64,000 bases of DNA from Pseudomonas phage PhiPA3: sequence record HQ630627.1; one strand, 5' to 3'. Positions 2,645 through 62,451 of the stretch are shown here, piece by piece (the stretch's first letter is position 1; the number at the start of each line of letters is the position of its first letter). Both the position numbers and the translations under genes were made by a program. Under the pieces are notes generated by a model. It ran no database searches. It worked only from the letters and a program-made list of their open reading frames with translations, and was not told where the DNA came from.

Positions 2645-2649
2645 CATAA

Positions 2650-2674
2650 GGGGAGCTTCGGCTCCCACTTATGC
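2650..2674 (+). terminator. UUCG-loop hairpin followed by TTATGC
   Basis: ggggagc-ttcg-gctccc then cttatgcc. Confidence 0.55.
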
Positions 2675-2680
2675 CATTAG

Positions 2681-3814
2681 GTGAATACAATGATTGAACA
2701 AAGAAGCGCTTACGAAGAAGCTGTATTACACGGCTTCAAAGGTTCTCAGGATGATTGGTTCCGTAGCTTAGAGGGACGTAAGCATCCGTACGACACGCTG
2801 GATACAGTGGTCAATGCTTCGCAGGCACACTTCGATTACATCGCTAGTAAAATAGCACCAGGGATGAGTAGCCTGTTTATCGAACAGAAGTTCGACCTCG
2901 CCCTAGATGAAAAGAACTACCTCGACAAAGTCGTTGAACTCTACAACGACGAATGCTCGGATCTGGATAACGCCGACCGTGCTCGTCTTTTCAACATGGT
3001 CAAGGCAGCTCGTTACCTGATCAAAGGCATTATCTACGGACGTCCCTACTCCCAACCCCGTTTACTAGAAGCTTGGGCACAATGTCCGAAGAGTCGTTTT
3101 GACTATTTCAAGGATAAAGTACCCAGGTACGATACCGAATGTACACAGGTACACCCTGATATCGATCTCACATGGCGTCTTAACAAAGGAAAAGACATGC
3201 AAGCTTCTCAGAACACTCTTCGTGGCCAAACCTCAAGCATCACCCACATGGACGACGCTATGTTTATGTCTACCCACAAGATACCTGAACTCCTGACCCC
3301 GGTCGAAGAGATTTCCACCGCTGACGTACCCCCGGCAAATCAGTCTATTCCTCAGGGTAACCGTAAGGAACGTCGTATCGCTGGTAAGAAACAAAAGAAC
3401 AAACGCAAGAAACACATCGCCAACTGTAAGTCTGGTTTCCACAAAGCAGTAATGGGTTCTATGGTCCTCAGTCGCCTTGGTCGTGTCCAACAAGATACCC
3501 AAGACAACCTGAAGAAAGCCCTGCTCAAAGACCATGCCATGGCTGATGTCGTGGAAGCGGCCACCGGTGAGAAGCTCCCAGCTTATCAACGTAATCTGTT
3601 GAACCAAATGCAAGAGCGTGCTCAGCATGGTAAATCGATCGTCGAAGAACACGAAAGACTGGTCAGCGAAGAGGATGCCGAAATGTTCGTCAATAAGGGA
3701 GTCCCTGAGGAAGTCCTCGATGGGCAGTTTAATCTGGTACCAGCTGGAGATAGCAGCGCAGAAGAGTCTGACGAAGGACTGGAAGTAGACGACGGCGTAG
3801 CCGATCGCGATTAA
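2681..3814 (+). CDS. hypothetical protein (377 aa, basic KR-rich segment)
   Basis: ORF with upstream GGTG RBS, acidic C-terminus. Confidence 0.5.
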   Translation: MNTMIEQRSAYEEAVLHGFKGSQDDWFRSLEGRKHPYDTLDTVVNASQAHFDYIASKIAPGMSSLFIEQKFDLALDEKNYLDKVVELYNDECSDLDNADRARLFNMVKAARYLIKGIIYGRPYSQPRLLEAWAQCPKSRFDYFKDKVPRYDTECTQVHPDIDLTWRLNKGKDMQASQNTLRGQTSSITHMDDAMFMSTHKIPELLTPVEEISTADVPPANQSIPQGNRKERRIAGKKQKNKRKKHIANCKSGFHKAVMGSMVLSRLGRVQQDTQDNLKKALLKDHAMADVVEAATGEKLPAYQRNLLNQMQERAQHGKSIVEEHERLVSEEDAEMFVNKGVPEEVLDGQFNLVPAGDSSAEESDEGLEVDDGVADRD

Positions 3815-3820
3815 CATAAC

Positions 3821-3846
3821 GCTCCTGCTTCGGCAGGAGCTTATGC
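3821..3846 (+). terminator. UUCG-loop hairpin followed by TTATGC
   Basis: gctcctgc-ttcg-gcaggagc-ttatgcc. Confidence 0.55.
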
Positions 3847-3864
3847 CAATTTAAGGAAAATACA

Positions 3865-4335
3865 ATGGCCAAAGTAATCATGCCGTCTCAGTTGAAGAAA
3901 TTCAACTCGTTCAACATCATGTACATGCTCCGCTCGGTATTCTGCCTGTACAACATCCAACAGAGCGAGATGTACGCTCTGAACGATACCGCCATGTTGT
4001 TGAATGGCAAACTGGTGGAAATCCCCGAGATCGAGATTGGCGTCCCTGCACCGATCTTTGATCGCGTCCACAAAGCCTTCCCTCAGCTGTTCGATCCCAA
4101 GAAAAAGGTATTGCGTCTTCGTGAACGGTTGATTGCCCGTCGACTGGAAGTGATCAAGAAGAGTGAGTACCAATATCAAGGCCCTTACTACATTCGTAAG
4201 TTGGAAGTATTGATCCGTGATGCTGAGGATGCTCTGCGTTGCCCCTCACTGTCTCAAGCCAAGCAGAAGCGTGTAACTACTAACTTGTTGATCATGAAGG
4301 ATAAAACTATCCAACATCGGGTCTACAACCGCTAA
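3865..4335 (+). CDS. hypothetical protein (156 aa)
   Basis: ORF with AAGGAAAA RBS, ends at the bidirectional hairpin. Confidence 0.5.
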   Translation: MAKVIMPSQLKKFNSFNIMYMLRSVFCLYNIQQSEMYALNDTAMLLNGKLVEIPEIEIGVPAPIFDRVHKAFPQLFDPKKKVLRLRERLIARRLEVIKKSEYQYQGPYYIRKLEVLIRDAEDALRCPSLSQAKQKRVTTNLLIMKDKTIQHRVYNR

Positions 4336-4342
4336 CGACATA

Positions 4343-4374
4343 AACCCCTCTCCTTCGGGAGAGGGGCGTTATGC
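4343..4374. terminator. bidirectional hairpin cccctctcc-ttcg-ggagagggg followed by TTATGC
   Basis: Lies between convergent genes. The whole ~52-bp element is repeated identically at 29384-29433. Confidence 0.6.
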
Positions 4375-4376
4375 AT

Positions 4377-5477
4377 TTATTTTTTCAGATCAGCGATTGT
4401 CTCAGCAATCTGTTTGTTGAATTGTTTCACGAATTCAGAACTACCCATGTTGCGGTAGACTTGGTCGTTAGAGCTATCGATCAGATCAATCATAACTTCA
4501 TTCAACTGCGAACGATCATAGCCATGGTTCTGTTGCATCATGCGAATCAGGTAACGAATGTAGGGTAAGCGGGCCATGGTAATAGCCCATTCGTTCTGAT
4601 ACGTCACTGGTTCACGTGGTAGCTTGATGACATCAAACAGATCGTTCTTAACGATCATCGGGGTAATAGCAGCCAACCCTTCGAGTTCAATCCCTTTCAG
4701 AATAGCTTCTTTGTTAATGTATTCAGCAAGCGTATCCAGACGGGGAGACATGTCGGTTAAGTAGAAGGGATGCGATACCGGGAACTTCGGGTTATCGATA
4801 TGCTGGGAAGCGCGATCCAGTCTATTAAAGAAGGCGATATCCAGATAACTCTCGATCATGTTGGGTAGTACAATACTCCCTACAAACCTGTAAGCGTTCT
4901 CTTTTTGATCTACGCCGTTTTGTATTTGCCATCTGAGCCAATAACGATACTGCACCAACAGCATGGGAATATTAACTGAGATCACGCCGTAGGCTCGCCC
5001 TTGGGTGGTGTTGTTCATGATCGGGAGGTTAACGTCTGTCCGTGTGTGGTACAGATACTTAACTGGCTGGAGATCCCGCCATGTTTTCCCCAGTCCTTTG
5101 GTCTCGAATCGTTCTAGGCTCGCCATTGCGACTTCTTCAGACTTGGGTCCTAGGGTGATTCCCCCTTCGTGGATTTTCCCTTTGTGAATGGAAGATGTCA
5201 TACCAAAGACACGGTACACGCCCTTAGCGTAATCTTCAACTTTCTTTGCCCAAGCGGCGTCATCAATCTTCCAATCGATCACAAACTGCTGACACAGTAA
5301 AGCAAACATATTGGAAGAGTCCACGTATTTCGGAGCTTTCCGATAATACGTTTGCACATCTTTAATAAGAGTTTTGTAGGTCCGACGAATATAGACAATT
5401 CGAGGATCCAAAGCTTGGCCTAAGCGACGCGTGGGTGCGTCTCTGAAGAGCATGTACATGTTAGTCGCCCATTGCAA
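4377..5477 (-). CDS. hypothetical protein (366 aa)
   Basis: long minus-strand ORF, divergent promoter region upstream. Confidence 0.55.
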   Translation of the reverse strand: MQWATNMYMLFRDAPTRRLGQALDPRIVYIRRTYKTLIKDVQTYYRKAPKYVDSSNMFALLCQQFVIDWKIDDAAWAKKVEDYAKGVYRVFGMTSSIHKGKIHEGGITLGPKSEEVAMASLERFETKGLGKTWRDLQPVKYLYHTRTDVNLPIMNNTTQGRAYGVISVNIPMLLVQYRYWLRWQIQNGVDQKENAYRFVGSIVLPNMIESYLDIAFFNRLDRASQHIDNPKFPVSHPFYLTDMSPRLDTLAEYINKEAILKGIELEGLAAITPMIVKNDLFDVIKLPREPVTYQNEWAITMARLPYIRYLIRMMQQNHGYDRSQLNEVMIDLIDSSNDQVYRNMGSSEFVKQFNKQIAETIADLKK

Positions 5478-5485
5478 AAGATTTC

Positions 5486-5505
5486 AAATCTATATCATGG
5501 TTTTG
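5486..5505 (+). promoter_or_regulatory. candidate early-type promoter motif AAATCTATATCATGGTTTTG
   Basis: near-identical copy at 21695-21714, related copies at 7486 and 16665; 36 nt upstream of the 5541 start. Confidence 0.4.
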
Positions 5506-5540
5506 ATAAGTCACCCCTTACATCTAAATAGGAAACTATA

Positions 5541-7274
5541 ATGCATTCCAATTATACCCCCACCCGTAAAAGCGTTACAGGTATTACCATCGGTAATATG
5601 CAAAACATCGCCTTACTCCATATGCCGAACATGTATAACCAGGTTTCTGAGCTGTTCCTTTATAGTACCTATTTCCATGGGATGGACCTCACCCGCTGTA
5701 ACCGCGATGCAGTCGAGTGGTTCATGACTCACCTCGCTGATGCTGTCCAACACGATTTCGATAATCTTGATGGCGAACAACTGGACGATCGAATCAAGGC
5801 ACGCATCGCCGGTTTGCAGGACGTAATCCAGCAAGCCTTAACTGGTGAAGGCGTGCTGTGTGAACAGCCAGGCGCCATCAAAGTGGAAGTTAATGGTATT
5901 CATCGCTTTATCCAGATGAACCATGATTTCAACCGGGTGAAGATGGCTGTACAAAAACTGATTACAGGTGCCATTGGCGTAATCCGCCCAGGCGTCACCA
6001 CCCATCAAGTCCGTGATCTCGAAAAGGTCCTTAGCAAAGAGTGGACTGTAATGACCAACAGTGCCCGTAAGGAGGCTTTGGTTAATTACATTGCTTTGCT
6101 GGCGAATTGCCATAACAACTCGCAGACTAACCAACTTCTACCGGAAGCTAAAGTCCCCCAACGTATTTTCCTCAACCCCCGTAACAGGAGTACTATCATG
6201 CAACACGATGATGAAAACATTCGTTCTGGTACTAGCGATAGCTTCGAAGATACCAACAACGAAAGAACAGGCCTTCCCCGTCTTAACGAGCGTCTACGGA
6301 GCAATCGAGCCACCAAAGTCGATATCACGGATGCTCCGGATCTGACTGATGCTCGTTACAGCGACAACGGTGATATTCATCTGAAGAAGATCTTCCTGAA
6401 CATCTCCGCTACCGCTATTGCTAAGGCAGGCCTACTCATCGAGAATTTCACTGACGACAACTTCGATCGCATCGTTAATCACGCTGCCTCCTTGTTTGGT
6501 CCTTGTTTGGATACCAACAGCGAAGAACTCATTAACAATCAGCTGTCTATCCTGGCCACCTTCGTCAGAGACGTTTACGATGAGCAGACTAAAAGCACTG
6601 GAGAACCCCGTGAGCTGTCTCTGATCGAGCGCAAATTCAGTGGGAACATTCCGCTGGATATCGACAAAGGTTACCTGTCCATCCAACGTAATGACACTGA
6701 AAGCTCCGATCAAATCGGTTTCGTCTACAATGACGAAAACCGTGAGTTCACGAAGGCATCTTCGGAAGAAGAACAGCGCATGCGTGACGAGATCGTAGCT
6801 ATTTGTTCTGGTCCGAGTATCGACGCTTTGCACCACAAAGCTGCTCTGGATTACCAGCGTGCTATTCAAGAAGCCAATGACGTCCGTGCGGAGGGTTCTA
6901 ATACCTCGCATATGAAGTACAAGCAGTTGATGCAGAAAGCTCGTGCACATTACCTGCAAACGGTTGAGATGATCGACAAAGGCGTCATGGTGGAGAACGA
7001 TGGTCTACTGGCCACCAACGTCATTAATGCCCGTACTCGCCTGGCAGCTTATCGCTGCAATGGTAATGAACTGGTTAAACTGCATCGTGAGGTGGTGGAA
7101 CGTCGAGATGCGCTTCAAGCGGCTGAAGAATGCCGACTGACCCAGGAACGTGGAGAGCTGATCCGCGACATCATGGAAAAGGTCATCAGCCGAATCATGG
7201 ATGCACAGCGCCAGGGCGAACTCACCGAAATTGTTCGCAACCTGATCGATGAGTTGAACGTCCACGCGAAATAA
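5541..7274 (+). CDS. hypothetical protein (577 aa)
   Basis: long ORF with AGGAAA RBS. Confidence 0.55.
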   Translation: MHSNYTPTRKSVTGITIGNMQNIALLHMPNMYNQVSELFLYSTYFHGMDLTRCNRDAVEWFMTHLADAVQHDFDNLDGEQLDDRIKARIAGLQDVIQQALTGEGVLCEQPGAIKVEVNGIHRFIQMNHDFNRVKMAVQKLITGAIGVIRPGVTTHQVRDLEKVLSKEWTVMTNSARKEALVNYIALLANCHNNSQTNQLLPEAKVPQRIFLNPRNRSTIMQHDDENIRSGTSDSFEDTNNERTGLPRLNERLRSNRATKVDITDAPDLTDARYSDNGDIHLKKIFLNISATAIAKAGLLIENFTDDNFDRIVNHAASLFGPCLDTNSEELINNQLSILATFVRDVYDEQTKSTGEPRELSLIERKFSGNIPLDIDKGYLSIQRNDTESSDQIGFVYNDENREFTKASSEEEQRMRDEIVAICSGPSIDALHHKAALDYQRAIQEANDVRAEGSNTSHMKYKQLMQKARAHYLQTVEMIDKGVMVENDGLLATNVINARTRLAAYRCNGNELVKLHREVVERRDALQAAEECRLTQERGELIRDIMEKVISRIMDAQRQGELTEIVRNLIDELNVHAK

Positions 7275-7485
7275 GAAAAGATACTGGGGTTTATCATTTA
7301 ATACAGGAGTTGGCCGTAAGGTACGATCCTGCACTAAAAGCTATGCCCCAGTGTCCACTGTTTGCAAATCGTTTTCAACTTAAGGAAGCGATTATGTAAT
7401 ACAGTATGTGGAAGTTCTGCTACCACAATGACCTAGCTTTTATAGCGGGTTTCGTGGTTTATAGCCCATTGAAAAAAATCTCACA

Positions 7486-7499
7486 TCTATATCACAGGT
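7486..7499 (+). promoter_or_regulatory. candidate promoter motif ATCTATATCACAGG
   Basis: variant of the TCTATATCA motif, ~70 nt upstream of the 7571 start. Confidence 0.35.
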
Positions 7500-7570
7500 G
7501 TGCACTCGTTCCCGAAAGGTTCTGAGTCTACTTGATCAAGTATTGAAATACCATCGTAAAGGAAAAAGAC

Positions 7571-9454
7571 ATGTCTATTCGTGATAGCGAAAACAACAAC
7601 GGCCAACAGCAGCAGACCGCGCAAACTGCCGCCCCCGCCCCGCAAATGCAACAGACCCAACAAGGACCCAAAGTGCAAACTCAAACTCTCCAAGGCGGTG
7701 CTGGTAACCTGAACAGCATCTTCCAGCGTTCCGGCCGTACCGACGGTGGTGACGCTCGTGCCAGCGAAGCGCTGGCTGTGTTCAACAAACTGAAAGAAGA
7801 GGCAATCGCTCAGCAAGATCTGCATGACGATTTCCTGGTCTTCCGTTTCGACCGCGATCAGAACCGCGTAGGTTACTCCGCTCTGCTGGTTGTTAAGCGT
7901 GCCGCTATCAACGGTCAACAAGTCATCGTTACCCGCCCGCTGGTAATGCCGAACGATCAGATCACTCTGCCGACCAAGAAACTGACCATCCAAAACGGGA
8001 TGCATCAGGAAACCATCGAAGCGGAAGCTGACGTACAAGACGTGTTCACCACCCAGTACTGGAACCGCATCTGCGACTCCATTCGTCAGCAAACTGGCAA
8101 GCACGACGCCATGGTCATCAACGCTGGTCCGACCGTCATCCCCGCAGATTTCGATCTGAAAGATGAACTGGTTCTGAAGCAGCTGCTGATCAAATCCGTC
8201 AACCTGTGCGATGACATGCTGGCCAAGCGTTCCGGCGAACAGCCCTTCTCCGTTGCCATGCTCAAAGGCACCGACGAGACCCTGGCTGCCCGTCTGAACT
8301 TCACTGGTAAGCCGATGCATGACAGTCTGGGCTATCCGATCCGTTCGGACATCCTGGTATCCCTGAACCGCGTCAAGAAGCCGGGCCAGCAGGAGAACGA
8401 ATTCTACGAAGCCGAAGATAAGCTGAACCAAGTCAGCTGCTTCGTCAACCTGGAATACACTCCTCAGCCGCAACAAGCCATCTACGGTGCTCCGCAGCAA
8501 ACCCAACAGCTGCCTCCGCTCACTCCGGCCATCGTCATCACCGACGTACGTCAGGCTGAGTGGCTGAAAGCAAACACCATGGAACTGTACCTGTTCGCTC
8601 TGAGCAACGCATTCCGTGTAACTGCTAACCAGTCCTGGGCACGTAGCCTGCTGCCGCAACTGGGTAAGGTCAAGGACATGCGCGATATCGGTGCAATCGG
8701 CTACCTGAGCCGTCTTGCAGCGCGCGTTGAAACCAAGACCGAAACCTTCACCGACCAGAACTTCGCCGAACTTCTGTACAACATGGTTCGTCCGTCTCCG
8801 GTGTTCATGTCCGACCTGAACCGCTTCGGCGACAACGCTGCGATCGAGAACGTCTTCATCGACGCCCTCGGTGGTGTAAACCAGCAGCGCGCTGTAGCGG
8901 CTATCATTGCCGGTGTGAACAACCTGATTGGTGGTGGCTTCGAGAAGTTCTTCGATCACAACACCATGCCGATCATCCAGCCGTACGGCACCGACATCCA
9001 GCTGGGCTACTACCTGGATGGCGAGGGTGAGAAGCAAGACCGTCGTGACCTGGACGTCCTGGGCGCTCTGAACGCCAGCGACGGCAACATCCAGGAATGG
9101 ATGAGCTGGTACGGCACTCAGTGCAACGTCGCAGTACATCCGGAACTGCGTGCTCGCCAGTCGAAGAACTTCGACCGTCAGTACCTGGGTAACTCCGTCA
9201 CCTACACCACCCGTGCACATCGTGGTATCTGGAACCCGAAATTCATCGAGGCTCTGGACAAAGCGATCGCGTCGGTTGGCCTGACCGTAGCCATGGACAA
9301 CGTGGCTCAGGTGTTCGGTGCTCAGCGCTTCAGCGGCAACCTGGCTATCGCCGACTACGCCGTTACTGGTACCGCTCAGGTATCCAGCGGCCTGGTTTCC
9401 AACGGTGGCTACAACCCGCAGTTCGGTGTAGGTCAAGGCTCGGGCTTCTATTAA
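7571..9454 (+). CDS. very highly expressed 627-aa protein, proposed chimallin-like nuclear shell protein
   Basis: Strongly biased codon usage (GGT/CGT/CTG/AAC-rich) and AAAGGAAAAAGACATG RBS. Q-rich disordered N-terminus. Sits immediately upstream of the RNAP beta' N-terminal gene, as phiKZ gp54 sits upstream of gp55. The antisense 660-aa ORF is an artefact. Confidence 0.4.
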   Translation: MSIRDSENNNGQQQQTAQTAAPAPQMQQTQQGPKVQTQTLQGGAGNLNSIFQRSGRTDGGDARASEALAVFNKLKEEAIAQQDLHDDFLVFRFDRDQNRVGYSALLVVKRAAINGQQVIVTRPLVMPNDQITLPTKKLTIQNGMHQETIEAEADVQDVFTTQYWNRICDSIRQQTGKHDAMVINAGPTVIPADFDLKDELVLKQLLIKSVNLCDDMLAKRSGEQPFSVAMLKGTDETLAARLNFTGKPMHDSLGYPIRSDILVSLNRVKKPGQQENEFYEAEDKLNQVSCFVNLEYTPQPQQAIYGAPQQTQQLPPLTPAIVITDVRQAEWLKANTMELYLFALSNAFRVTANQSWARSLLPQLGKVKDMRDIGAIGYLSRLAARVETKTETFTDQNFAELLYNMVRPSPVFMSDLNRFGDNAAIENVFIDALGGVNQQRAVAAIIAGVNNLIGGGFEKFFDHNTMPIIQPYGTDIQLGYYLDGEGEKQDRRDLDVLGALNASDGNIQEWMSWYGTQCNVAVHPELRARQSKNFDRQYLGNSVTYTTRAHRGIWNPKFIEALDKAIASVGLTVAMDNVAQVFGAQRFSGNLAIADYAVTGTAQVSSGLVSNGGYNPQFGVGQGSGFY

Positions 9455-9906
9455 TAGAAGCCTAACCAAATAACTCCCTCGGTAGATAGGGGTGTACGAA
9501 GGCGTACATCCCGATTCTAATGCGTATACTTAGGCCAACTCGAAAGAGATCGCCTAGAGATAGGTAGGTTCCGTGGTAGCCCCAGCTTTATCGGAAACTG
9601 ATTTATTGCAGACCTTGGTCATTGCCAGAGCGCTTATCTACGTTGTGGGGTAGGTTGATAAGACGACAATGACTCGGAGTGAGGCCCACTCTCCTTAACA
9701 GTGCAATTGGATCAAGTCTGGTCAGGCAGCGCTATCACTACACGAGTTGTGAGTTAGAACCACTTAACCCAAAAGGCGTCACTCTAGGGAGACGTTGTGG
9801 TTCACATGGGGCATGGAATCACCTAGCAGGCTTGATGGTAAAACATTAAGGTAACCAGCCGTGGAGGATACCCAACCCAAAATAGGGGTAACCCCCTGGG
9901 ATAAAG

Positions 9907-9940
9907 GCGGCTCCTTCGGGAGCCGCTTATATCTCCTTTT
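9907..9940 (+). terminator. hairpin gcggctcc-ttcg-ggagccgc followed by a T-run
   Basis: intrinsic terminator at the end of the ~480-nt non-coding region downstream of 7571..9454. Confidence 0.55.
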
Positions 9941-9969
9941 TTTGTCGTCGTAGTGGAGGGAATAACGAC

Positions 9970-11436
9970 ATGGGTCTGTATGCGGCAATCGTCAATCACG
10001 ACGAGATGCTTGCCAATGCAACTGGCAAGATCGTATTCGCAAATGACTTCAATACCAGTAACGCAGAACAGAAGGAGGAATTCACGCGACATCTGTATTC
10101 GCATTATCAGGATGCAGACGCCATTGAGAACTCGGCCTCGTGTGAATGTGAACACATCACAGATGCACACAAGCTCGGCGTAATCTGTGAAGTTTGTGGT
10201 ACACCTGTTGTTAGTACATCTAATCGTCCCATTGTTCCATCGATGTGGGTACGTGCACCGGAAGGGGTGGTGAGTCTGGTTAGTCCGGAACTCTGGATCA
10301 TGCTCAGTGGGTATATGACCATGAAGGAGTTCGACTTCCTGGAATATCTCACAAACACGGGCTATAGTTACGACTACGACACCATCAGCTCCAAAGAAAC
10401 CAAAAAGAAACTTGACAAGCTGTTACAACGTGGGTTTACTCGCGGCTTGAACCATTTCATCGAGAACTTTGATGAGATTTTTCAGTTCTTGCTTGATGCA
10501 AACATTATTAACAATAACAAAGGCGAGATGTATGCCTTTGTACAACAGAACAAACATAAGCTGTTCCCGAAGAATCTTCCAATCCCCTCCAAACTGTGTT
10601 TTGTGGTAGAATCAACCACATCGGGTACGTACATCGATAAACCAATTGCTGCTGCAATTGATGCGGTGTTGACCATCAGTTCGATTGGTTCATCTCCGAT
10701 TGAACTTAAGTCGATCGTTGTCCAAAATCGGGTAGCGCGATTCCTCAAATTGAATGCTACCTTCCACGAGAACTATGACAAACAACGGATAGCTCAGAAA
10801 CAGGGCCTGATTCGTCGACACGTCTTGGGTGGCCGTCTTAACCTGACCGCTCGGGCAGTAATCACCTCGATCAGTTCTCCGCATGATTACGATGAACTGC
10901 ATATCCCGTGGGGTGTTGGCTGTCAGCTATTGAAGTATCACCTGGTCAACAAGCTGAAACGTAAGTTCCGTATGACCACCCGAGATGCGATGTCCTACAT
11001 CTATTCGAAGGTACTAGCGTACGATCCGATGCTCGATAGCCTCTTCAAGGAAATCATTGCAGAATCCAAGTACAAAGGCCTGGCTGCGGTATTCCACCGT
11101 AACCCGACTCTACAACGTGGTTCGACTCAGCAGTTCTTCATCACCAAAGTGAAGAGCGACATCAGGGATAATTCCATCAGCATGTCTGTGCTATGTCTGA
11201 AGGCACCTAACGCGGATTTTGACGGCGATCAACTGAACTTGACGCTGATGCCTGATAACTATCTGGCTGATGCAACTGACCGAATCGCTCCTTGGAGCTG
11301 GGTACTGAGTACGGATGATCCCCATGAAATTTCGGGGAACTTGGAATTACAAGGCCCGGTTGTCGAGACGATCATTAACTTTGCTCACGAGGACTATCTC
11401 CCGCCGCTCGAAGAGTGGTTGAAGATGGCTGCCTAA
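9970..11436 (+). CDS. multisubunit RNA polymerase beta' subunit, N-terminal part (phiKZ gp55-like)
   Basis: Zn-finger CECEH...CEVCG aligns with the E. coli beta' CLCG...CEKCG, plus the catalytic NADFDGDQLNL motif. Confidence 0.85.
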   Translation: MGLYAAIVNHDEMLANATGKIVFANDFNTSNAEQKEEFTRHLYSHYQDADAIENSASCECEHITDAHKLGVICEVCGTPVVSTSNRPIVPSMWVRAPEGVVSLVSPELWIMLSGYMTMKEFDFLEYLTNTGYSYDYDTISSKETKKKLDKLLQRGFTRGLNHFIENFDEIFQFLLDANIINNNKGEMYAFVQQNKHKLFPKNLPIPSKLCFVVESTTSGTYIDKPIAAAIDAVLTISSIGSSPIELKSIVVQNRVARFLKLNATFHENYDKQRIAQKQGLIRRHVLGGRLNLTARAVITSISSPHDYDELHIPWGVGCQLLKYHLVNKLKRKFRMTTRDAMSYIYSKVLAYDPMLDSLFKEIIAESKYKGLAAVFHRNPTLQRGSTQQFFITKVKSDIRDNSISMSVLCLKAPNADFDGDQLNLTLMPDNYLADATDRIAPWSWVLSTDDPHEISGNLELQGPVVETIINFAHEDYLPPLEEWLKMAA

Positions 11437-11456
11437 ATCAACAGGAGACAATCGTA

Positions 11457-12068
11457 ATGAATTCGGCCTACGGCGTGGATTTGATGGACATCGCCGCTGG
11501 TGGACACCTGGATCAGCAAACAACCAACTGGCTAGGCTCGCGCATTGAAACCATGCGCAATACATTGTCTAGCGCGGCAATGGGGTTCTTTGACCAAGCG
11601 CGCAACATGTACCAGATGATCAGCGCCAACGATGCGGTTCAGGCTCTACGGAATCTGAATGCAAAAGTGGATAACGTCTGGAATGCCAACAACGTACACT
11701 ACTGCAACAGTCTGGAGCAGATTCAAACTGCGAACCCGATCATGCAGCGGTGGATTATGGCCATGCCCACAGTTCGTTCAATGTATCTGAACAACTCGCT
11801 GGAAGGATACGCTGATTCGTATGTGAATCACCACGGTGACGCCATTGGCGCAGCTCATTATGACTATCGTCGTGTAATGGACGGCATTGTTGAGGTCGCT
11901 GATGACCACTTCAAGGTTACTCATTATTACGAAGAGACGCCTGCTGAGGAGCGCCCGTTCACTCTCCACGAACAAGTGGATATCATTCGGACTTGGAACC
12001 TGGTTCAACAGGAACTGGATAAGAATGAGATGGATCCGACCAGTCCGGTCGGAAACATGATGGGTTAA
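11457..12068 (+). CDS. hypothetical protein (203 aa)
   Basis: ATG with AGGAGA RBS. Confidence 0.5.
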   Translation: MNSAYGVDLMDIAAGGHLDQQTTNWLGSRIETMRNTLSSAAMGFFDQARNMYQMISANDAVQALRNLNAKVDNVWNANNVHYCNSLEQIQTANPIMQRWIMAMPTVRSMYLNNSLEGYADSYVNHHGDAIGAAHYDYRRVMDGIVEVADDHFKVTHYYEETPAEERPFTLHEQVDIIRTWNLVQQELDKNEMDPTSPVGNMMG

Positions 12069-12075
12069 CGCCATA

Positions 12076-12115
12076 AGAGAGAGCCCTTCGGGGCTCTCTC
12101 GCTTTATTTTATTTT
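12076..12115 (+). terminator. hairpin agagagccc-ttcg-gggctctct followed by TTTATTTTATTTT
   Basis: classic intrinsic terminator. Confidence 0.6.
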
Positions 12116-12205
12116 GTTTGGAGTAGTCATGGACCTTTACCATTCCTGCTTAATCATGTGAGCCCTGCGGAGTCTTCGGACTCCGCTTCAATTCCCTAAT
12201 TTTTT

Positions 12206-12619: not shown

Positions 12620-12623
12620 TACA

Positions 12624-14914: not shown

Positions 14915-14917
14915 AAC

Positions 14918-15748: not shown

Positions 15749-15833
15749 GTAGCTGGGGAAAAATACCTGCTTCCTCAATAGTACGTAGAACACTTTGCGC
15801 AAAGTGAATAATATTTCCAATTGGAGTTACACC

Positions 15834-16680: not shown

Positions 16681-16721
16681 TATTACAGCTGTGTACCACC
16701 GGCAGTAACAAGGAGATAACA

Positions 16722-54193: not shown

Positions 54194-54736
54194 ATGGTCA
54201 TGGGTCAGCCTACTAATTCCGTGAAACCATTCGACGCTAATAAAGAGTACACAGGGGGGCAATACAAAGCCTCCCAGCGTTTCACAATGCGTCAAGGTGA
54301 TCCGCGTGTTCATGACTTGTTCGTGGAATACACCAATTTTCCACAGCGGACTGTTTATTGGGAATTCCGTAAACAAGTAATCGATCTGGCATTGGTTCTG
54401 TTTGGTGGTAACTATAATTGGTTCCTGCGTCAAGACCATAATGCCACTCTGACTGGGGTCAATTACGACTTCCTGCTCGATACTGTACGTTTCATTGCTA
54501 CTGGTAAGCGTCGTGTGAACCTGCATACCTGGCCAGCTCTGCTGACGTATGAACCCACGCAGCCTATCAACGTAGAAGAACGCCGCAATATTGCTGGTCT
54601 CTTCCATGAACTGAATCTCAGTCTGGACACCAAAGCGATTATCCAGAAATGGTGTACGCATAAAGGTGGTTTCGATGACCTCATGTACACCATGAATATG
54701 CTCTTTGGCACAGTACCTGAGAAAGTCAACAAGTAA
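54194..54736 (+). CDS. hypothetical protein (180 aa)
   Basis: TAAGGAG RBS; the antisense 223-aa ORF is rejected. Confidence 0.45.
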   Translation: MVMGQPTNSVKPFDANKEYTGGQYKASQRFTMRQGDPRVHDLFVEYTNFPQRTVYWEFRKQVIDLALVLFGGNYNWFLRQDHNATLTGVNYDFLLDTVRFIATGKRRVNLHTWPALLTYEPTQPINVEERRNIAGLFHELNLSLDTKAIIQKWCTHKGGFDDLMYTMNMLFGTVPEKVNK

Positions 54737-54746
54737 AGGAGGGTCC

Positions 54747-56063
54747 ATGGTTGACTCTATTGTTAACCAAACCCAACCTGAGCATCTCGACGGGGTAGAA
54801 CCCGTCGATTTGCCCGTCTCGCCCGAAGACCAAACTAAGTTGGAGTCAATTGACATTAGCTTAGAGGCATTTCATGCAGAATTGGATAGACTGGAGAAAC
54901 TAGATCACTTTATCCACAGTGATACGGGTAAACAGTCTCCAGAGATGCTGCGTTATGCCGTGGAGAAGTTCGGATTTGCGGACGCGATCTCGACGGAAGA
55001 CATTACCGATTCCGCCAAGCAGGTATGGGACCGCACTAAGTACAATTTAAAGCGATTCCAGAGCGATTTGTACGGTTACGCTAAGGTTCTCCAGAGTGGG
55101 AACGATCGCATCGTAGAGCGCATTTCTATGCTTTATGACACGGCCTCCAATATCAAGGATAAGCCGTATCAAGAAGAGATTGAAATTCGTAAGAACGCTA
55201 AGTTCGGTATTGACGGTAAGTTTGAACCGCATGACATTCGTCCAGTGATGATTCAAACGCAGAACCTTCTGGACTTCTATGATAAAGTCCTATTGCCGTA
55301 CATGGCCATGATCGATAAGATGATCAACAATTTATCGTTCGATGAAAAATGGACTGAAGACGCTACGATCGACTTTAGTATCTTCTACGCTAAGCGTTGG
55401 CTCAAGGGGGCACTCCCGGTTGAGAATGATCAACGCTTTCGTGTGAATGCTTCAGTGTTTCGGTCAGACTTGACTCAAGGCAATCGTTCTATTTACTTCT
55501 CGGGCCCTACTGAGGCGGAAACGGACAAGATCCAAGACTGGGCTTTTATGGTGAATACAATTCGGGATTTCCGATTTAAGTATTACACTGTACCGGAACA
55601 AAAGCCGGTTAACCCGGAAGACAACAAGATCGAAGTCCCTGCATCAAATCAGATCCGTCAACGTTTAGGTGTATTGATGGGCCTGGCCAAACGTCTACAA
55701 GCTCGGAAGGGTTATGACCAGAAGCTTTCTGCCGCATTACGTAAGCTGGAACAATCAGCTGATCGGGTACGCAGTAAAGCCGGTCAAATAAGGACCATGG
55801 ATAATAATGACCCTAACAGCCCAACTAATCGGCCAACCGAGGCAAAGAACGAAGCTCGCCCTGCCGTATCGAATGTAATCCATGATTTGACGATGATCCT
55901 GAACAACGTGACACGTATGATCACCGATTACAATAATGCCCTGGCTGGGATGATTCGCTTAATTAGTGGATTGGCATTCATTGCTGACCTGGAACTCAAG
56001 GCCTTCCAAGCACCTTTGCGAAAGCCTACTGAGGAAGAACAAAAGCGTCTCGCTCCAAGATGA
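54747..56063 (+). CDS. internal-head/inner-body-like paralog 1
   Basis: AAGGAGGG RBS; SLEAFHAELDRLEKL module start resembles LExYxxLLK of its paralogs. Confidence 0.45.
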   Translation: MVDSIVNQTQPEHLDGVEPVDLPVSPEDQTKLESIDISLEAFHAELDRLEKLDHFIHSDTGKQSPEMLRYAVEKFGFADAISTEDITDSAKQVWDRTKYNLKRFQSDLYGYAKVLQSGNDRIVERISMLYDTASNIKDKPYQEEIEIRKNAKFGIDGKFEPHDIRPVMIQTQNLLDFYDKVLLPYMAMIDKMINNLSFDEKWTEDATIDFSIFYAKRWLKGALPVENDQRFRVNASVFRSDLTQGNRSIYFSGPTEAETDKIQDWAFMVNTIRDFRFKYYTVPEQKPVNPEDNKIEVPASNQIRQRLGVLMGLAKRLQARKGYDQKLSAALRKLEQSADRVRSKAGQIRTMDNNDPNSPTNRPTEAKNEARPAVSNVIHDLTMILNNVTRMITDYNNALAGMIRLISGLAFIADLELKAFQAPLRKPTEEEQKRLAPR

Positions 56064-56069
56064 CATAAA

Positions 56070-56094
56070 CGGGAACCGTATGGTTCCCTTTATG
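56070..56094 (+). terminator. hairpin gggaacc-gtat-ggttccc followed by TTTATGCTATGTTA
   Basis: near-identical to the element at 58268. Confidence 0.55.
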
Positions 56095-56126
56095 CTATGT
56101 TATTCAGATACTCATGAGTACTAGAC

Positions 56127-57092: not shown

Positions 57093-57098
57093 AATGAA

Positions 57099-57121
57099 GG
57101 GGGCTTCGGCTCCCTTTATGC
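57099..57121 (+). terminator. hairpin gggggc-ttcg-gctccc followed by TTTATGC
   Basis: UUCG-loop hairpin plus TATGC. Confidence 0.55.
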
Positions 57122-58259: not shown

Positions 58260-58267
58260 TCATAAAC

Positions 58268-58292
58268 GGGAACCTTCGGGTTCCCTTTATGC
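58268..58292 (+). terminator. hairpin gggaacc-ttcg-ggttccc followed by TTTATGCTATGTTA
   Basis: UUCG-loop hairpin plus TATGC. Confidence 0.55.
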
Positions 58293-58326
58293 TATGTTAA
58301 CATACACCTTGCAAGGGTTTAAACAA

Positions 58327-59607: not shown

Positions 59608-59613
59608 ACATAT

Positions 59614-59638
59614 TGCCTCCCTTCGGGGAGGCTTTATG
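59614..59638 (+). terminator. hairpin gcctccc-ttcg-gggaggc followed by TTTATGCCGTCAATCCTATGTTTA
   Basis: UUCG-loop hairpin plus TATGC plus the CAATCCTATGTT box. Confidence 0.55.
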
Positions 59639-59675
59639 CCGTCAATCCTATGTTTAACACAATAGAGTCTTACTC

Positions 59676-60830
59676 ATGGATACTCGCCAAGACCCTCATA
59701 ACCGGCCAGATCTCAAGGATGCGCCGGACGAATTTGAACAACCAGATACGATCACTGATGACCATCTTGAACAGATCGACGAACTGGTTGCTATGCATCA
59801 TTCACTGGAGAACTATCTTAGCCACCTGGAAGCAGCTGGTCCTGATGGGTTATCTCGTCATGCAAAACGTGCCATGCAAATGGGGTTGAATCACATCGAC
59901 TCCAAACTTAATCGAATGACGTGTTCTCTGGAAGACAGTGAATCCACTGAAACCGATAACAGCAGTCTTGGTAACCGTATTAAAGAAATTGCTAAGCGGA
60001 TTTATCAGTTCATTCTAAAACTGATCGATCAAGCTAAGCAATATGCCAAGAAAGTTATTGGTGGTTCTGAACGCGTTAAGTCGAAAGCTGAAGAACTCCT
60101 GAAACAGATCCGTGATCGGACCAAACCAAAACCAGCTAATGAACTTCATAATGAAGCTTCTCATGTAACGGTCAATAGCCCAGGTATTTTGTTTGCAGAT
60201 GGTCATTTCTGTTTGGCTGAATGCCGTACTGAACAGGAAATTATTAAGTTCTTCCTACAAACGTATCCTCAATACACCAAAGACCAAATCAACAAACTCA
60301 CTAAGGCTGTCAAGTCTTACGATGTTGAATCAGGGGATGTTCGCGAATATGAGTCTATCAGTGAATTTGTAGGCAAGCATGTCAGTCTGGTAGCGAGTAT
60401 TGCAGACAAAATTCTACCCGGTAATAAGAAGGTCGAATTCAGGTATACCGCGTTAGGTCCATATTTGGGTGATGCAGATGCCAAAGATGCTCCAAGTGAA
60501 TATTCATTTGAAGCACGTCATCGGGCAGCTATCGAAGACACTTTGAAGCAAAACATTGCTACAATGAATGCCGTCGCTAAACTGTTAAAAGCTGAAGCTA
60601 GTATTCTGGATGAGATGCGTGAGCTTAGTCAACAGCTCATGGGTCTGCAAAATCGTCGTGGTGAAACAGTGTGGCGATCTGCACGGGAAGCACTGGATAA
60701 AGTCTGTACGGATAGCATGGAGCTGTTCCAGCGTATTCGTCCTGATTACGGCCCTATCTCCGCTCATCTAACTCGGATTGGGAAAGCGCGTAACGACGTC
60801 TGCGAGCTCGAACTGAAAGCACACCAGTAA
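59676..60830 (+). CDS. inner-body-like paralog 5
   Basis: acidic N-terminus then SLENYLSHLEAAGPDGLSRHAKRAMQMGLNHID. Confidence 0.5.
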   Translation: MDTRQDPHNRPDLKDAPDEFEQPDTITDDHLEQIDELVAMHHSLENYLSHLEAAGPDGLSRHAKRAMQMGLNHIDSKLNRMTCSLEDSESTETDNSSLGNRIKEIAKRIYQFILKLIDQAKQYAKKVIGGSERVKSKAEELLKQIRDRTKPKPANELHNEASHVTVNSPGILFADGHFCLAECRTEQEIIKFFLQTYPQYTKDQINKLTKAVKSYDVESGDVREYESISEFVGKHVSLVASIADKILPGNKKVEFRYTALGPYLGDADAKDAPSEYSFEARHRAAIEDTLKQNIATMNAVAKLLKAEASILDEMRELSQQLMGLQNRRGETVWRSAREALDKVCTDSMELFQRIRPDYGPISAHLTRIGKARNDVCELELKAHQ

Positions 60831-60894
60831 CCAATTCTATGGTTATTTACGAAGTCATCATCGCGCGATGATCTAACCTCTAGAGGAATTAATA

Positions 60895-62403
60895 ATGTCC
60901 AGTGCATTGCAACGCTACCTGAGTCAGGAAGAGTACGACGAAGCTCCCGTACCGACTGATGTGGTAGTTGAAGGCGGCGATTCTGCTATCGACGCCCAAG
61001 AAGTAGAAGTAATTGCCGGTCCGACGCCGGCAGTTGTAGAGGGAGCTATCGAGCCGACGCCGATCACTGAAGTTCTCCCCGAACCGACTCCGGCTCCACT
61101 ACCTGAAACACCTGCTGTTGTGACTAACACCGAAATGACCCCTGTTGCTGAAGTTACCACTGACATCCCTGCTGGGGCCGAACAAGAAGTCGATATCGCT
61201 GTCGATCAAGGTCTACCGCCGACTGGCGAAGAGATCCTCGACGTTGAAGCTGCTGTTGATAATGACAGTACTTTGCCGATGATGGACCACAGTCAGATTG
61301 AACAAACCATCATCGCCAACCAAGTTGACGATATGATCGAAGTTCAGCAATCGATGGAAGCTTATGCTGCTCTGCTGAAACAAACCGGTCTGGAAGGTAT
61401 CTCTCAGCAAACCGCAGCATTCCTGCGGGTGGGTCTGAAAGATGCTGAACGCAAATTGGGTGTTACGGGCCTGGTTGCCGGTCTGGAATCTTACGACGCT
61501 ACACCGCGCTCAGCTATTCAGAAAGCTACTGTATCCACAGAAGACCTGAAGGCATATGCCAAGCAGGCATTCGAGAAAGTGATGGAGCTTATCCGTAAAC
61601 TACTCGCTGCTATCGCCTCTGGTTTTGAAAGCCTTATGTCAGGTATTGTTGAAACTGAACACAAGCTTAATCTGCTGGAACAAGCAGCTGAGCAACTGCG
61701 TGGTAAAGAAGCACCGAATGCTGTTGTTCCACTGAATGATCCACTGTTGTTCGCCGGCACTAAGCTGAAATTCAAAGATACCAAATCTCTTTCGGGTCTG
61801 GCACATTTCAGTTCGTACGCCTATCCTGCCGCTGTGAAGAAATATTACGAAGGCCTGGGTACTCTGGTTAAGGGCTGGGATCCGATCAAGGGTAATGCCG
61901 ATGATCTGGTCGAGAAGCTGACTAGCGCCACCGCACCTCTGGACGATCTGTACAGCGATAATGAAATCCTGCCAGGTAATATGGTAATCGATATCGCTGC
62001 CGATGGCATTGTCTATGGCCTACGTAAAGATGAAACACAAGACGATCAGGTCAGTGGTAAGCTTACGGTTCGATCTGTTCCTGAGATCAAACAACACCTG
62101 AAGAAACTCTCGGACATCATCAAGATTAACAAAGCTGCTAAAGCGGAGCATGAGAAGATTGCTGAAGGTGCTAAGACCCTGACCGATGCAGGCAAAGCAC
62201 TGGAAGCAAAACTGGGTAGCGCTGAACTGGATCCGAGTTCCAAGGCTGAGATTCAGAAAGTACTTAACACTATCGCTGATCTGGTTCGTACTTCTAACCC
62301 GCGTAGCAAACAGATCACCCACTACGTCATCCGTGTAGTGAGTGCACATCTGAAAGTGATCAAAGCTGAACTGTCCAGCTACACCAAGAAAACTGGTGAA
62401 TAA
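60895..62403 (+). CDS. inner-body-like paralog 6 (long acidic, proline-rich N-terminal propeptide)
   Basis: SMEAYAALLKQTGLEGISQQTAAFLRVGLKDAERKLG...ESYDATPRSA; AGAGG RBS. Confidence 0.5.
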   Translation: MSSALQRYLSQEEYDEAPVPTDVVVEGGDSAIDAQEVEVIAGPTPAVVEGAIEPTPITEVLPEPTPAPLPETPAVVTNTEMTPVAEVTTDIPAGAEQEVDIAVDQGLPPTGEEILDVEAAVDNDSTLPMMDHSQIEQTIIANQVDDMIEVQQSMEAYAALLKQTGLEGISQQTAAFLRVGLKDAERKLGVTGLVAGLESYDATPRSAIQKATVSTEDLKAYAKQAFEKVMELIRKLLAAIASGFESLMSGIVETEHKLNLLEQAAEQLRGKEAPNAVVPLNDPLLFAGTKLKFKDTKSLSGLAHFSSYAYPAAVKKYYEGLGTLVKGWDPIKGNADDLVEKLTSATAPLDDLYSDNEILPGNMVIDIAADGIVYGLRKDETQDDQVSGKLTVRSVPEIKQHLKKLSDIIKINKAAKAEHEKIAEGAKTLTDAGKALEAKLGSAELDPSSKAEIQKVLNTIADLVRTSNPRSKQITHYVIRVVSAHLKVIKAELSSYTKKTGE

Positions 62404-62409
62404 TCATAA

Positions 62410-62439
62410 CGACGGGGCTCTTCGGAGTCCCGTCTTATG
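62410..62439 (+). terminator. hairpin gacggggctc-ttcg-gagtcccgtc followed by TTATGC
   Basis: UUCG-loop hairpin plus TATGC. Confidence 0.55.
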
Positions 62440-62451
62440 CTAGGAGTTGTT

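Follow-up and report, generated by a model that had tools for sequence, protein, structure and literature searches.

In the giant phage phiKZ, 61 terminators have a motif in common, BCCYCCCCHWWDGGGRRGGBYTTATKYYGT, in which a stem-loop is followed by TTAT (Putzeys et al. 2024, PMC10914365). Motif A of the 201phi2-1 terminators (n=59) is similar to this motif, and a second motif (B) lengthens the stem (PMC11512511). The phiKZ terminators of this type are also located upstream of AT-rich sequences, which are read here as early promoters. All eight reporter-validated terminators of 201phi2-1 are of the hairpin-TTTATG type, in which TTATKYYGT follows the stem-loop. These eight elements lower downstream expression in vivo, six of them equally to or better than lambda T0, in a reporter assay that runs on the host polymerase, not on the phage enzymes. 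Their reported termination sites lie 1-2 nt beyond the G of TATG and 8-9 nt past the stem, the Nanopore-mapped ends being accurate to ~2 nt and perhaps due in part to exonucleases that trim the RNA as far as a stable hairpin. Because the RNA 3' ends of 201phi2-1 lie beyond its G, TTATG forms the tail of the terminated transcript. Published experiments in relatives of PhiPA3 thus show both RNA 3' ends at the motif and termination in a reporter. TATG is also the necessary core of the late promoters of phiKZ, T(-3)ATG(+1), which are recognized by the non-virion RNA polymerase and bound sequence-specifically by its beta-like subunit (Ceyssens 2014; Yakunina 2015, PMC4666361; PMC12809450). An earlier note on the PhiPA3 DNA gave this promoter motif correctly (PMC4666361).

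The window analysed here is a stretch of 64,000 nucleotides of the Pseudomonas phage PhiPA3 genome (HQ630627.1). It encodes chimallin and RNA polymerase fragments, and one of its proteins is an exact match to PhiPA3. Fourteen intergenic copies of an element are present in the window, in which a stop codon is followed by 6-10 nt (often CATAA), a GC-rich stem-loop-stem, 0-3 nt and TTATG(C/T). The features are listed in Table 1. The GC-rich stem and (T)TTATG described in the earlier note are present at all 14 sites that it listed. Its count of at least 17 copies holds for these 14 and reaches 17 only when the variants are added, two of which end with TTATT and two of which are looser. The stems of the 14 copies are 6-10 bp long, with core energies of -10 to -25 kcal/mol. 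Ten copies have a TTCG loop, and the rest have CAAA, TTA/ATTA, GAAA or GTAT. The G of (T)TTATG is located 5-7 nt past the stem and is followed by C in 12 copies and by T in two. The inverse CATAA or CATAT, which was noted before as often following the stop codon, is present upstream of the stem at 11 of the 14 sites, in the full complementary form at ~8 of them. This arm begins 0-3 nt past the stop codon, and therefore the distance from the stop codon to the stem is 6-10 nt, as is the case in 14 of 14 copies; the next start codon lies 8-290 nt beyond the G. The position of the element is tied to the stop codon upstream. The upstream flank of the copy at 28014-28045 is ACAAAAG, and therefore this copy has TATG only on the sense side. 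The variant at 21268-21304 lacks TTAT on the plus strand. A long U-tract is absent 3' of most sites, as stated before, and a real T run is present only in a few window copies (50-73, 12072-12109 and 9905-9945). TTAT is followed by G in 14 of 16 copies in the window and at 72% of the sites across phages, and the consensus from 74 sense-strand sites of nine phages is TTAT-K-Y-Y-R-T.

Table 1. Probable terminator copies, variants and late-promoter-like boxes in the PhiPA3 window
Position	Strand	Feature	Sequence	Context
50-73	+	variant terminator, TTATT type	GGACACC-TTAG-GGTGTCC + TTATTTTT	upstream of DNA polymerase gene; outside range of earlier note
2645-2674	+	terminator element	CATAAG-GGGAGC-TTCG-GCTCCC-AC-TTATGC	stem 6 nt past stop of ORF 2297-2644
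3815-3846	+	terminator element	CATAAC-GCTCCTGC-TTCG-GCAGGAGC-TTATGC	3' of ORF 2681-3814
4339-4374	.	two-sided terminator	CATAAA-CCCCTCTCC-TTCG-GGAGAGGGG-CG-TTATGC; minus strand TTTATGTCGT	convergent genes 3865-4335 (+) / 4377-5477 (-)
9905-9945		looser variant	TTATAT + T run	
12072-12109	+	variant terminator, TTATT type, U-rich tail	CATAA-GAGAGAGCCC-TTCG-GGGCTCTCTC-GC-TTTATTTTATTTT	3' of ORF 11415-12068
21268-21304	-	looser variant	GCTGGGAGCC-CGAA-GGCTCCCAGC + TCTATGCCGT; CTATG, not TTATG	between convergent genes
28014-28045	+	terminator element	CCCTCCC-TTCG-GGGAGGG-TTTATGT	3' of helicase gene 26478-28010
29386-29421	.	two-sided terminator		convergent genes 29146-29382 (+) / 29424-29867 (-)
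32172-32242	.	hairpin-free CTATGTTA boxes, both strands	ATCTATGTTA minus 32172-32181; CCCTATGTTA plus 32233-32242	divergent intergenic region
37103-37129	+	terminator element	GCCCCTCC-TTCG-GGAGGGGC-C-TTATGC	3' of virion structural gene 35732-37096
37132-37143	+	late-promoter-like box	CAATCCTATGTT	3 nt past terminator TTATGC, ~20 nt before gene 37150-38700
40023-40056	.	terminator element	CATAAA-GCCCTCCC-CAAA-GGGAGGGC-CA-TTATGC	minus strand fits published phiKZ motif, 1 mismatch
41893-41925	.	two-sided terminator	CCCTCCCA-TTA-TGGGAGGG-TTTTATGT; minus strand TTTATTTCGT	convergent genes
48076-48110	.	two-sided terminator	CATATTG-CCCGCCCC-GAAA-GGAGCGGG-C-TTTATGC; one internal mismatch	convergent structural genes
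56064-56095	+	terminator element	CATAAAC-GGGAACC-GTAT-GGTTCCC-TTTATGC	3' of internal head protein gene 54705-56063
56094-56102	+	late-promoter-like box	GCTATGTTA	overlaps terminator
57094-57121	+	terminator element	ATGAAGGGGGC-TTCG-GCTCCCTTTAT-GC	G·U pairs in sense strand only; antisense side without TATG
58261-58292	+	terminator element	CATAAAC-GGGAACC-TTCG-GGTTCCC-TTTATGC	
58291-58299	+	late-promoter-like box	GCTATGTTA	overlaps terminator
59609-59639	+	terminator element	CATATT-GCCTCCC-TTCG-GGGAGGC-TTTATGC	
59643-59654	+	late-promoter-like box	CAATCCTATGTT	separate from terminator
60831-60844	+	hairpin-free late-promoter-like box	CCAATTCTATGGTT	immediately 3' of stop codon
62405-62440	+	terminator element	CATAAC-GACGGGGCTC-TTCG-GAGTCCCGTC-TTATGC	upstream of gp96-homolog

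TTATGC by itself is not enriched in the window (32 versus 30). TTCG-N(3-12)-TTATGC is found ten times, versus 1.3 expected, the match at 42549 having no hairpin. The hairpin with TTATG is found 21 times when both strands are counted, whereas 30 dinucleotide shuffles gave 1.07 on average and 5 at most. The published phiKZ motif, for which 0 matches are expected, is found on both strands of the window at 40019-40059 and 41889-41928; the copy at 41893-41925 is located within a phiKZ-like segment with 84% identity. At the gp96-homolog, nine phages of at least seven genera have the orthologous upstream hairpin, with compensatory changes in 7 of 15 pairs. Internal G·U pairs are found ten times in the sense strand, versus no A·C pairs (p=0.002), in a test that is somewhat ascertainment-biased, because the sites were first found by a G·U-tolerant search. 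The stems covary, and the G·U pairs are confined to the sense strand.

The element is very probably an intrinsic (hairpin-dependent) transcription terminator of phiKZ-like nucleus-forming jumbo phages. It represents the terminator type already described for phiKZ-like giant phages, to which PhiPA3 adds copies. Like the terminators of phiKZ and 201phi2-1 (PMC10914365, PMC11512511), it consists of a GC-rich stem-loop with TTAT-K-Y-Y-G-T immediately 3' of it, is located 3' of genes, is two-sided at convergent genes and has a CATAA-type upstream arm that lengthens the stem. Orthologous positions are occupied, sometimes with the same stem sequence (GACGGGGCTC/GAGTCCCGTC and CCCCTCTCC/GGAGAGGGG); the latter stem, at 29386-29421, is that of the phiKZ orthologous site, where the loop is ACAT. 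UUCG predominates strongly among the PhiPA3 loops, in contrast to the AT-rich consensus (HWWD) of the phiKZ loop. The G after TTAT is near-fixed in PhiPA3 and mostly followed by C. A canonical bacterial Rho-independent terminator likewise has a GC-rich hairpin, release ~7-9 nt past the stem and an optional upstream A-rich arm for two-sidedness, and the host polymerase works in the 201phi2-1 reporter assay; however, the PhiPA3 element has a short interrupted UUAUGYY for the U-tract. Bidirectional intrinsic terminators of bacteria, in which one symmetric hairpin with A-rich and U-rich arms ends the transcripts of both strands between convergent genes, differ in that the PhiPA3 flanks are CAUAA and UUAUG, not A and U runs, and that the symmetry is also seen at many co-directional junctions.

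The sense transcript would fold into the GC-rich stem, capped mostly by a C(UUCG)G tetraloop, and (U)UUAUGYY would act in place of the usual U-tract. A short weak UUAU hybrid would adjoin the stem, followed by a pyrimidine-then-purine step, and the RNA would end ~7-9 nt past the stem, inside or just beyond UUAUG-Y-Y. The upstream CAUAA, right 3' of the stop codon, would pair with UUAUG. This arm makes the element the same on the other strand, so that it would terminate transcription coming from either side, a property of importance where genes converge. The PhiPA3 polymerases presumably terminate at the window copies. The earlier note was right to take the hairpin with TTATG as a single conserved unit marking RNA ends, and to describe this unit as two-sided where genes converge.

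The element might instead affect RNA stability or processing without stopping the polymerase, if the stable UUCG hairpin protects the RNA from 3'-to-5' exonucleases or serves as the signal for endonuclease cleavage close to UUAUG; the 3' ends that are seen, and perhaps 5' ends as well, would then arise post-transcriptionally. The high stability of the hairpins, their mostly UUCG tetraloops and the absence of a long U-tract are consistent with this explanation, the sequencing methods used in relatives alone cannot separate termination from trimming, and a processing origin of the phiKZ 'middle' transcripts has been raised as a possibility (PMC10612078). It is nevertheless improbable, given the reduced reporter expression in vivo. 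In addition, the mapped ends lie at the distance of hairpin-driven release, whereas trimmed ends are normally nearer the stem base, and an exonuclease block needs no conserved post-stem sequence such as TTATKYYGT. A dispersed DNA-level palindrome without a role in transcription (REP- or MITE-like, or a protein-binding or cruciform site) would also be palindromic, intergenic and multi-copy, and the 41-nt spacers at 4336-4376 and 29383-29423 are identical. However, the stem sequences vary among copies, only the architecture and flanks being common, the G·U pairs are confined to the sense strand, the element is linked to stop codons, it is conserved at orthologous sites, where compensatory changes are seen, and RNA ends map to it in relatives. 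This explanation is already disfavoured and hardly credible.

Each element may also be a fused terminator-promoter, in which the upstream transcript stops at the hairpin and the non-virion polymerase starts at the same TATG, with the G as +1. Like the phiKZ late promoters, the element has TATG, and many copies are located upstream of virion genes: of the 10 window copies with a co-directional gene downstream, 7 have a virion or internal-head gene there. The sequence TTATGTTAGGAG upstream of the gp96-homolog is kept in phiKZ, Phabio, Psa21 and RVTF4, and TTATGTTCAGGAG in PS119XW and HPP-Temi; this site leaves a short leader with a ribosome-binding site and has no other TATG, but in 201phi2-1 it reads TTTTTATTCAGG. 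G is commoner than T after TTAT. This strong preference is exactly the late-promoter core, and a simple weak-hybrid model leaves it unexplained. No other TATG precedes the next gene at 20 of 40 co-directional TTATG junctions, and therefore the downstream genes there must be transcribed by read-through or from a start at the TATG of the terminator itself. However, TATG is necessary but not sufficient, and G is preferred over T to the same degree with or without a following gene, at 40:11 where the next gene is co-directional versus 13:5 at convergent sites (p=0.75). Five window copies have no obvious gene for a promoter, because no co-directional gene is directly downstream: in four cases the 3' end of a convergent gene lies opposite, and the copy at 40023-40056 faces a reverse-strand ORF, with the next forward gene 290 nt away. 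The element is also located 3' of non-structural genes such as that of the helicase, and of genes without a known function close to that of the DNA polymerase. Other phages have TTATT at orthologous sites, and TATG is wholly absent from 9 of 11 such junctions, so that read-through evidently suffices. The terminator-linked TATG is located 3' of a GC-rich stem, whereas AT-rich DNA without a hairpin lies upstream of P119L, a known late promoter, and of its 201phi2-1 counterpart. Together with the 201phi2-1 RNA ends past the G, the convergent copies, the TTATT orthologues and the hairpin-free P119L leave the late promoter that the earlier note fused to the hairpin unsupported, and such dual use is unlikely, though it may occur at some sites.

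The late promoter is more likely a separate CAAT-N-CTATGTT box, sometimes located 3' of the terminator. At half of the TTATG junctions, a separate TATG box that is better conserved is present downstream. C usually follows the G in the terminator copies of the window, whereas the stand-alone boxes have T, G or A there, and the stand-alone or second boxes (CAAT-N-YTATG-K-T) fit the P119L context (TTGCTATGTAGA) better than the terminator-linked TATG. The promoter of the non-virion RNA polymerase would be a separate module, roughly CAAT-N-(C/T)TATG-(T/G)T, that stands alone, a few bases 3' of the terminator or overlapping it (TTATGCTATGTTA). The second box CAATCCTATGTT, found in two copies as claimed before, is conserved across genera both with and without a hairpin, and is probably a better late-promoter candidate than the hairpin-linked TTATG. 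Psa21 and RVTF4 have the hairpin with TTTATTTCG and then a separate CCAATGCTATGTTAA. TTATGCTATGT(T/A)A of the box at 56094-56102 is kept at the orthologous sites of phiKZ, PS119XW, HPP-Temi, 201phi2-1 and Phabio. CCAATTCTATGGTT is present alone, without a hairpin, in four phages; the core AATTCTATGGTT of the box at 60831-60844 is kept in phiKZ, and the entire CCAATTCTATGGTTAT in PS119XW and HPP-Temi.

The fourteen intergenic sites at which the earlier note placed a hairpin followed by TTATG are all real. The stem starts 6-10 nt after the upstream stop codon in every copy, is GC-rich and 6-10 bp long, and closes on a loop of four bases, which is TTCG in ten of the 14 copies. It is followed by (T)TTATG, with the G 5-7 nt past the stem, and then by C in 12 copies and by T in two. 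The inverse element said to precede the stem is present as CATAA or CATAT in 11 of the 14 copies, but is fully complementary to TTATG in only about eight of them. Besides the 14 copies with TTATG, two copies end in TTATT, and looser variants are listed with them in the table. Counting both strands, a hairpin followed by TTATG is found 21 times, whereas dinucleotide-shuffled sequences contain 1.07 on average; TTCG-N(3-12)-TTATGC is found ten times against 1.3 expected. TTATGC by itself is not enriched in the window, and the UUCG hairpins at 12167 and 26440 are not followed by the tail.

Positions of variant hairpin copies and of the G of candidate late-promoter boxes in the window
Feature	Position	Strand	Form
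TTATT-ending copies	50-73, 12072-12109		hairpin + TTATT
Looser variant	21268-21304	minus
Looser variant	9905-9945
G of box CAATCCTATG	37141, 59652
G of box CCAATTCTATG	60841
G of GCTATG box	56099, 58296

The distance between the G and the next start codon varies from 8 to 290 nt, whereas the distance from the upstream stop codon is fixed. Virion or head genes lie 3' of seven copies and genes with no family match 3' of three, and four copies lead into convergent genes. Copies are also located 3' of the helicase gene and of genes near the DNA polymerase gene, and not of late genes alone. At the four convergent copies (4339, 29386, 41893 and 48076), TTATG on the plus strand reads into a gene from its 3' end, and a separate TTATGTCGT-type tail is present on the minus strand, so that the motif is present on both strands, in agreement with the two-sidedness proposed for convergent genes. 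This placement at gene ends and between genes, including the two-sided convergent copies, is that of phiKZ-type terminators. The spacers 4336-4376 and 29383-29423, each of 41 nt and each with a two-sided predicted terminator, are identical, and their identity extends about 10 nt into the ends of two unrelated minus-strand genes (ATTTATTTTTT).

Most copies lack a long U-tract, as had been noted from the sequence, and have only (T)TTATGY in its place; the U run of a canonical Rho-independent terminator is thus missing. When the rule of a U run directly after the stem (at least about 5 of 8) is applied to 1-20000, 50-67 and 12077-12100 are picked on the forward strand, and 2651, 3821 and 4345 are picked on the reverse strand only.

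A terminator motif of this kind is known from phiKZ, in which 61 sites have the motif BCCYCCCCHWWDGGGRRGGBYTTATKYYGT (Putzeys et al., PMC10914365). In 201phi2-1, 132 termination sites are reported; their commonest motif (n=59) 'strongly resembles' that of phiKZ, a second motif lengthens the hairpin, and bidirectional terminators number 15 (PMC11512511). The published IUPAC motif of phiKZ has four matches in the window (40019-40059 and 41889-41928, on both strands each), against 0 expected. Because only one phiKZ-like contig was found when a viral contig collection was searched by protein and by the conserved hairpin pattern, the comparison is based on eight other annotated phages of different genera. 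In the window and about 230 kb of these phages (two phiKZ stretches and one head-gene locus from each of the seven others), 74 sense-strand sites give the consensus TTAT-K(G 72%, T 22%)-Y-Y-R-T, located 0-3 nt from the stem. A stem-loop followed by TTAT within 0-3 nt, in the extended form TTATKYYGT, is therefore found in the window as in the phiKZ-type terminators.

Eight terminators of 201phi2-1 have been validated in a two-reporter assay, with their coordinates printed in the text (PMC11512511). The sequences at these coordinates consist in all eight cases of a hairpin and a TTTATG-type tail (one TATAC, one AATATG), as in GCCCAGCC-TCAAC-GGCTGGGC-TTTATGC[T]G and GGCCTCCC-TTCG-GGGAGGC-TTTATGA[C]G. 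The reported ends lie 1-2 nt past the G of TATG and 8-9 nt past the stem, at a resolution of only about 2 nt, and consist of a pyrimidine followed by G in seven of the eight. The terminated transcript therefore carries TTATG within its 3' tail, in the role of the U-tract. This position, which comes from a relative, is the strongest single argument on function. By analogy, the PhiPA3 element is a predicted terminator and a member of the class known from phiKZ and 201phi2-1.

The spacer upstream of the gp96-homolog, the gene 3' of the element at 62405-62440, contains a hairpin and TTAT(G/T) in nine phages, in which the flanking proteins are only 26-48% identical. For this spacer, RNAalifold predicts 15 pairs across the nine phages, seven of them with compensatory changes, and an outer helix in which CAUA is paired with UAUG. 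At single non-Watson-Crick positions in the stems of co-directional sites, the sense strand has G·U ten times and A·C not at all (p=0.002), with some ascertainment bias remaining in this test. The compensatory changes and the sense-strand G·U pairs indicate conservation of the hairpin at the level of RNA structure, and favour an RNA hairpin in the sense transcript rather than a DNA cruciform. A cruciform or a mobile repeat is rejected, because G·U is confined to the sense strand and the stems differ between copies; the copies also differ from REP/MITE-like palindromic repeats in that their positions are orthologous across genera. Extension of the palindrome's stem is rejected as the whole story of TTATG, because TTATG is present in 14 of 14 copies and the complete CATAA in only about eight.

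The best-supported mechanism, which is held to be quite probable, combines the sense-RNA stem, a weak UUAU hybrid, a pyrimidine-purine step and the CAUAA arm. The sense RNA would fold into the stem, stabilised by C(UUCG)G, and the weak UUAU hybrid beside it would permit release of the RNA 7-9 nt downstream. The pyrimidine-then-purine step past the G may add a pause, and the CAUAA arm would lengthen the stem and, as a mirror image of the tail, allow antisense or convergent transcription to be terminated as well. The universal pause consensus has G at -10, Y at -1 and G at +1, and is suggested to lie behind the YYG that follows TTATG. The Y-then-G step is present at seven of the eight validated 201phi2-1 sites, the G at -10 hinges on the end of each stem, and in the window copies the purine of the step is A as often as G. 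The near-fixed G after TTAT is left unexplained by the proposed mechanism.

The beta-like subunit of the polymerase binds TATG on the non-template strand (PMC12809450). If the pocket of this subunit that grips TATG at late start sites also gripped it during elongation, the polymerase would be slowed directly past the hairpin, could terminate without a U-tract and, being left on a TATG competent for starts, could re-initiate. Termination, insulation and restart would then all depend on a single four-base word, and the specificity of a four-base promoter would be partly explained. This reading is improbable, however, because the mapped ends lie 2 nt past the register that it predicts. The proposal made in the earlier note is that an RNA-end hairpin is fused with a late promoter, the hairpin-linked TATG being a late start. 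Its premise is correct: the phiKZ late promoter is T(-3)ATG(+1), every base of which is needed, although TATG is necessary and not sufficient (PMC4666361). These four bases are found at every one of the 14 copies, and dual use has its best case in the leader upstream of the gp96-homolog, with its conserved TTATGTTAGGAG. Several tests argue against the fusion itself. TTAT is followed by G or T in a ratio of 40:11 where the next gene is co-directional and of 13:5 where genes converge (Fisher p=0.75), so that the preference for G is independent of context. Orthologous sites elsewhere end in TTATT, as does TTTTTATTCAGG in 201phi2-1 upstream of the gp96-homolog, and nine of the 11 co-directional TTATT junctions contain no TATG before the next gene, so that read-through evidently suffices there. 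An extra TATG box is present in 20 of the 40 TTATG junctions, and AT-rich sequences that look like early promoters are also located 3' of phiKZ terminators of this type. In the known phiKZ late promoter P119L (TTGCTATGTAGA) and in that of 201phi2-1 which corresponds to it (CAATATGTAGA), the DNA upstream is AT-rich and contains no hairpin, whereas the terminator-linked TATG comes after a GC-rich stem. The reader's interpretation is partly supported, but not in the fusion of the promoter with the hairpin, although the terminator TATG may, with low probability, also act as a start at some sites.

A better candidate for the late promoter than the terminator-tail TTATG is the second box. The earlier note had seen it as CAATCCTATGTT at two copies, and it is indeed present at 37132 and 59643; it is more than an occasional addition and is conserved in other phages. 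At 60831, CCAATTCTATGGTT stands alone, without a hairpin and directly 3' of a stop codon; the same sequence is found in PS119XW and HPP-Temi, and AATTCTATGGTT is retained in phiKZ. At this same junction, Psa21 and RVTF4 have a hairpin with TTTATTTCG, a spacer of about 10 nt and then CCAATGCTATGTTAA. The form in which terminator and box overlap, TTATGCTATGT(T/A)A, is conserved in six phages, and a further conserved pair, TTTATGCCGGATCTTATGATCTTAAA, is located upstream of the gp98-homolog. AATNCTATGKT is found three times in the window against 0.3 expected, and the divergent region 32172-32242 has CTATGTT boxes in both directions. From these sequences we infer that the extended CAAT-N-YTATG-K-T box is a candidate late promoter, with terminator and promoter as probably separable modules that often lie back to back.

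The modest but useful residue is that two look-alikes, the terminator-tail TTATG and the CAAT-N-YTATG-K-T box, are told apart, which bears on how the non-virion polymerase finds its promoters, TATG being the sole known signal. No mention of the overlap between the four-base words of terminator and promoter was found in the literature examined, and the literature search found no paper on transcript-end mapping in PhiPA3. The sites represent a first map, drawn from sequence, of where transcripts are likely to end in this 64-kb stretch of a widely used phage-nucleus model. The map is of use in operon definition, in predicting which insertions would be polar, and as a source of compact terminator parts that work from both sides.

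The window contains the chimallin gene (7571-9454; Pfam 2e-286), which groups with the PhiPA3 chimallin cluster, and also codes for fragments of multisubunit RNA polymerases with Rpb1/Rpb2 domains, a helicase and several paralogous internal head proteins in succession. Its gene order is syntenic with phiKZ gp54 to gp97. Chimallin, the polymerase fragments and synteny mark a phage of the phiKZ type that encodes multisubunit RNA polymerases of its own. Opposite the chimallin gene, the minus strand has an ORF of 660 codons (7487-9469), which exceeds the real gene in length and matches no family; it is most likely spurious and can mislead strand assignment. The longest-ORF starts of three genes are located in or upstream of the terminator (62437 versus 62452, 58231 versus 58328 and 2681 versus 2692), the one at 62437 being the ATG of the terminator TTATGC. 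The true starts are likely the downstream ATGs, which have a ribosome-binding site, and that at 62452 is confirmed by the exact match of the internal head protein 62452-63579 to a PhiPA3 protein.

Rfam has no family for the hairpins and finds only two group I introns, both above the gathering threshold. That at 23111-23404 (plus strand, 79 bits) is flanked by ORF 21811-23013, for which there is no family match, and by 23392-24447, which matches the RNA polymerase Rpb2 domain; that at 42590-42895 (minus strand, 72 bits) adjoins the 5' end of the minus-strand gene 42883-44709. The 1.8-kb region 40084-41925 is 84% identical in DNA to phiKZ gp83/gp84, against 72-78% for the rest of the window to any relative in the phage collection, and lies in a low-GC patch (0.41 versus about 0.48). 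A virion-protein paralog (phrog_16120) has its third copy here, next to a terminator of phiKZ style in which the loop is AT-rich, and the region appears to have been exchanged recently with a phiKZ-like phage. The 515 nt at 9455-9969, between the chimallin gene and an RNA polymerase beta-prime-like gene, are free of ORFs and have no Rfam match, and are predicted to fold more strongly than shuffled sequences (z = -3.1). Conservation in PS119XW-like phages is seen at both ends, and phiKZ-like phages are 93-98% identical over the last 45 nt or so, which include a T run and the hairpin at 9905; the region may represent a non-coding RNA or a long 3' UTR. An identical 18-mer, ATCTATATCATGGTTTTG, is present in two divergent intergenic regions (5488-5505 and 21697-21714) and resembles the AT-rich early (virion polymerase) promoter boxes 3' of phiKZ and 201phi2-1 terminators. 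The leader of the gp97-homolog (63583-63640) contains conserved AATTATCTGA ... CTGTACAGAAGGTA ... ATG, with counterparts at L002 11042-11135 and L004 38783-38881; an extra hairpin, TTCGTCC ... GGACGAA, absent in PhiPA3, is inserted into this leader in most other phages.
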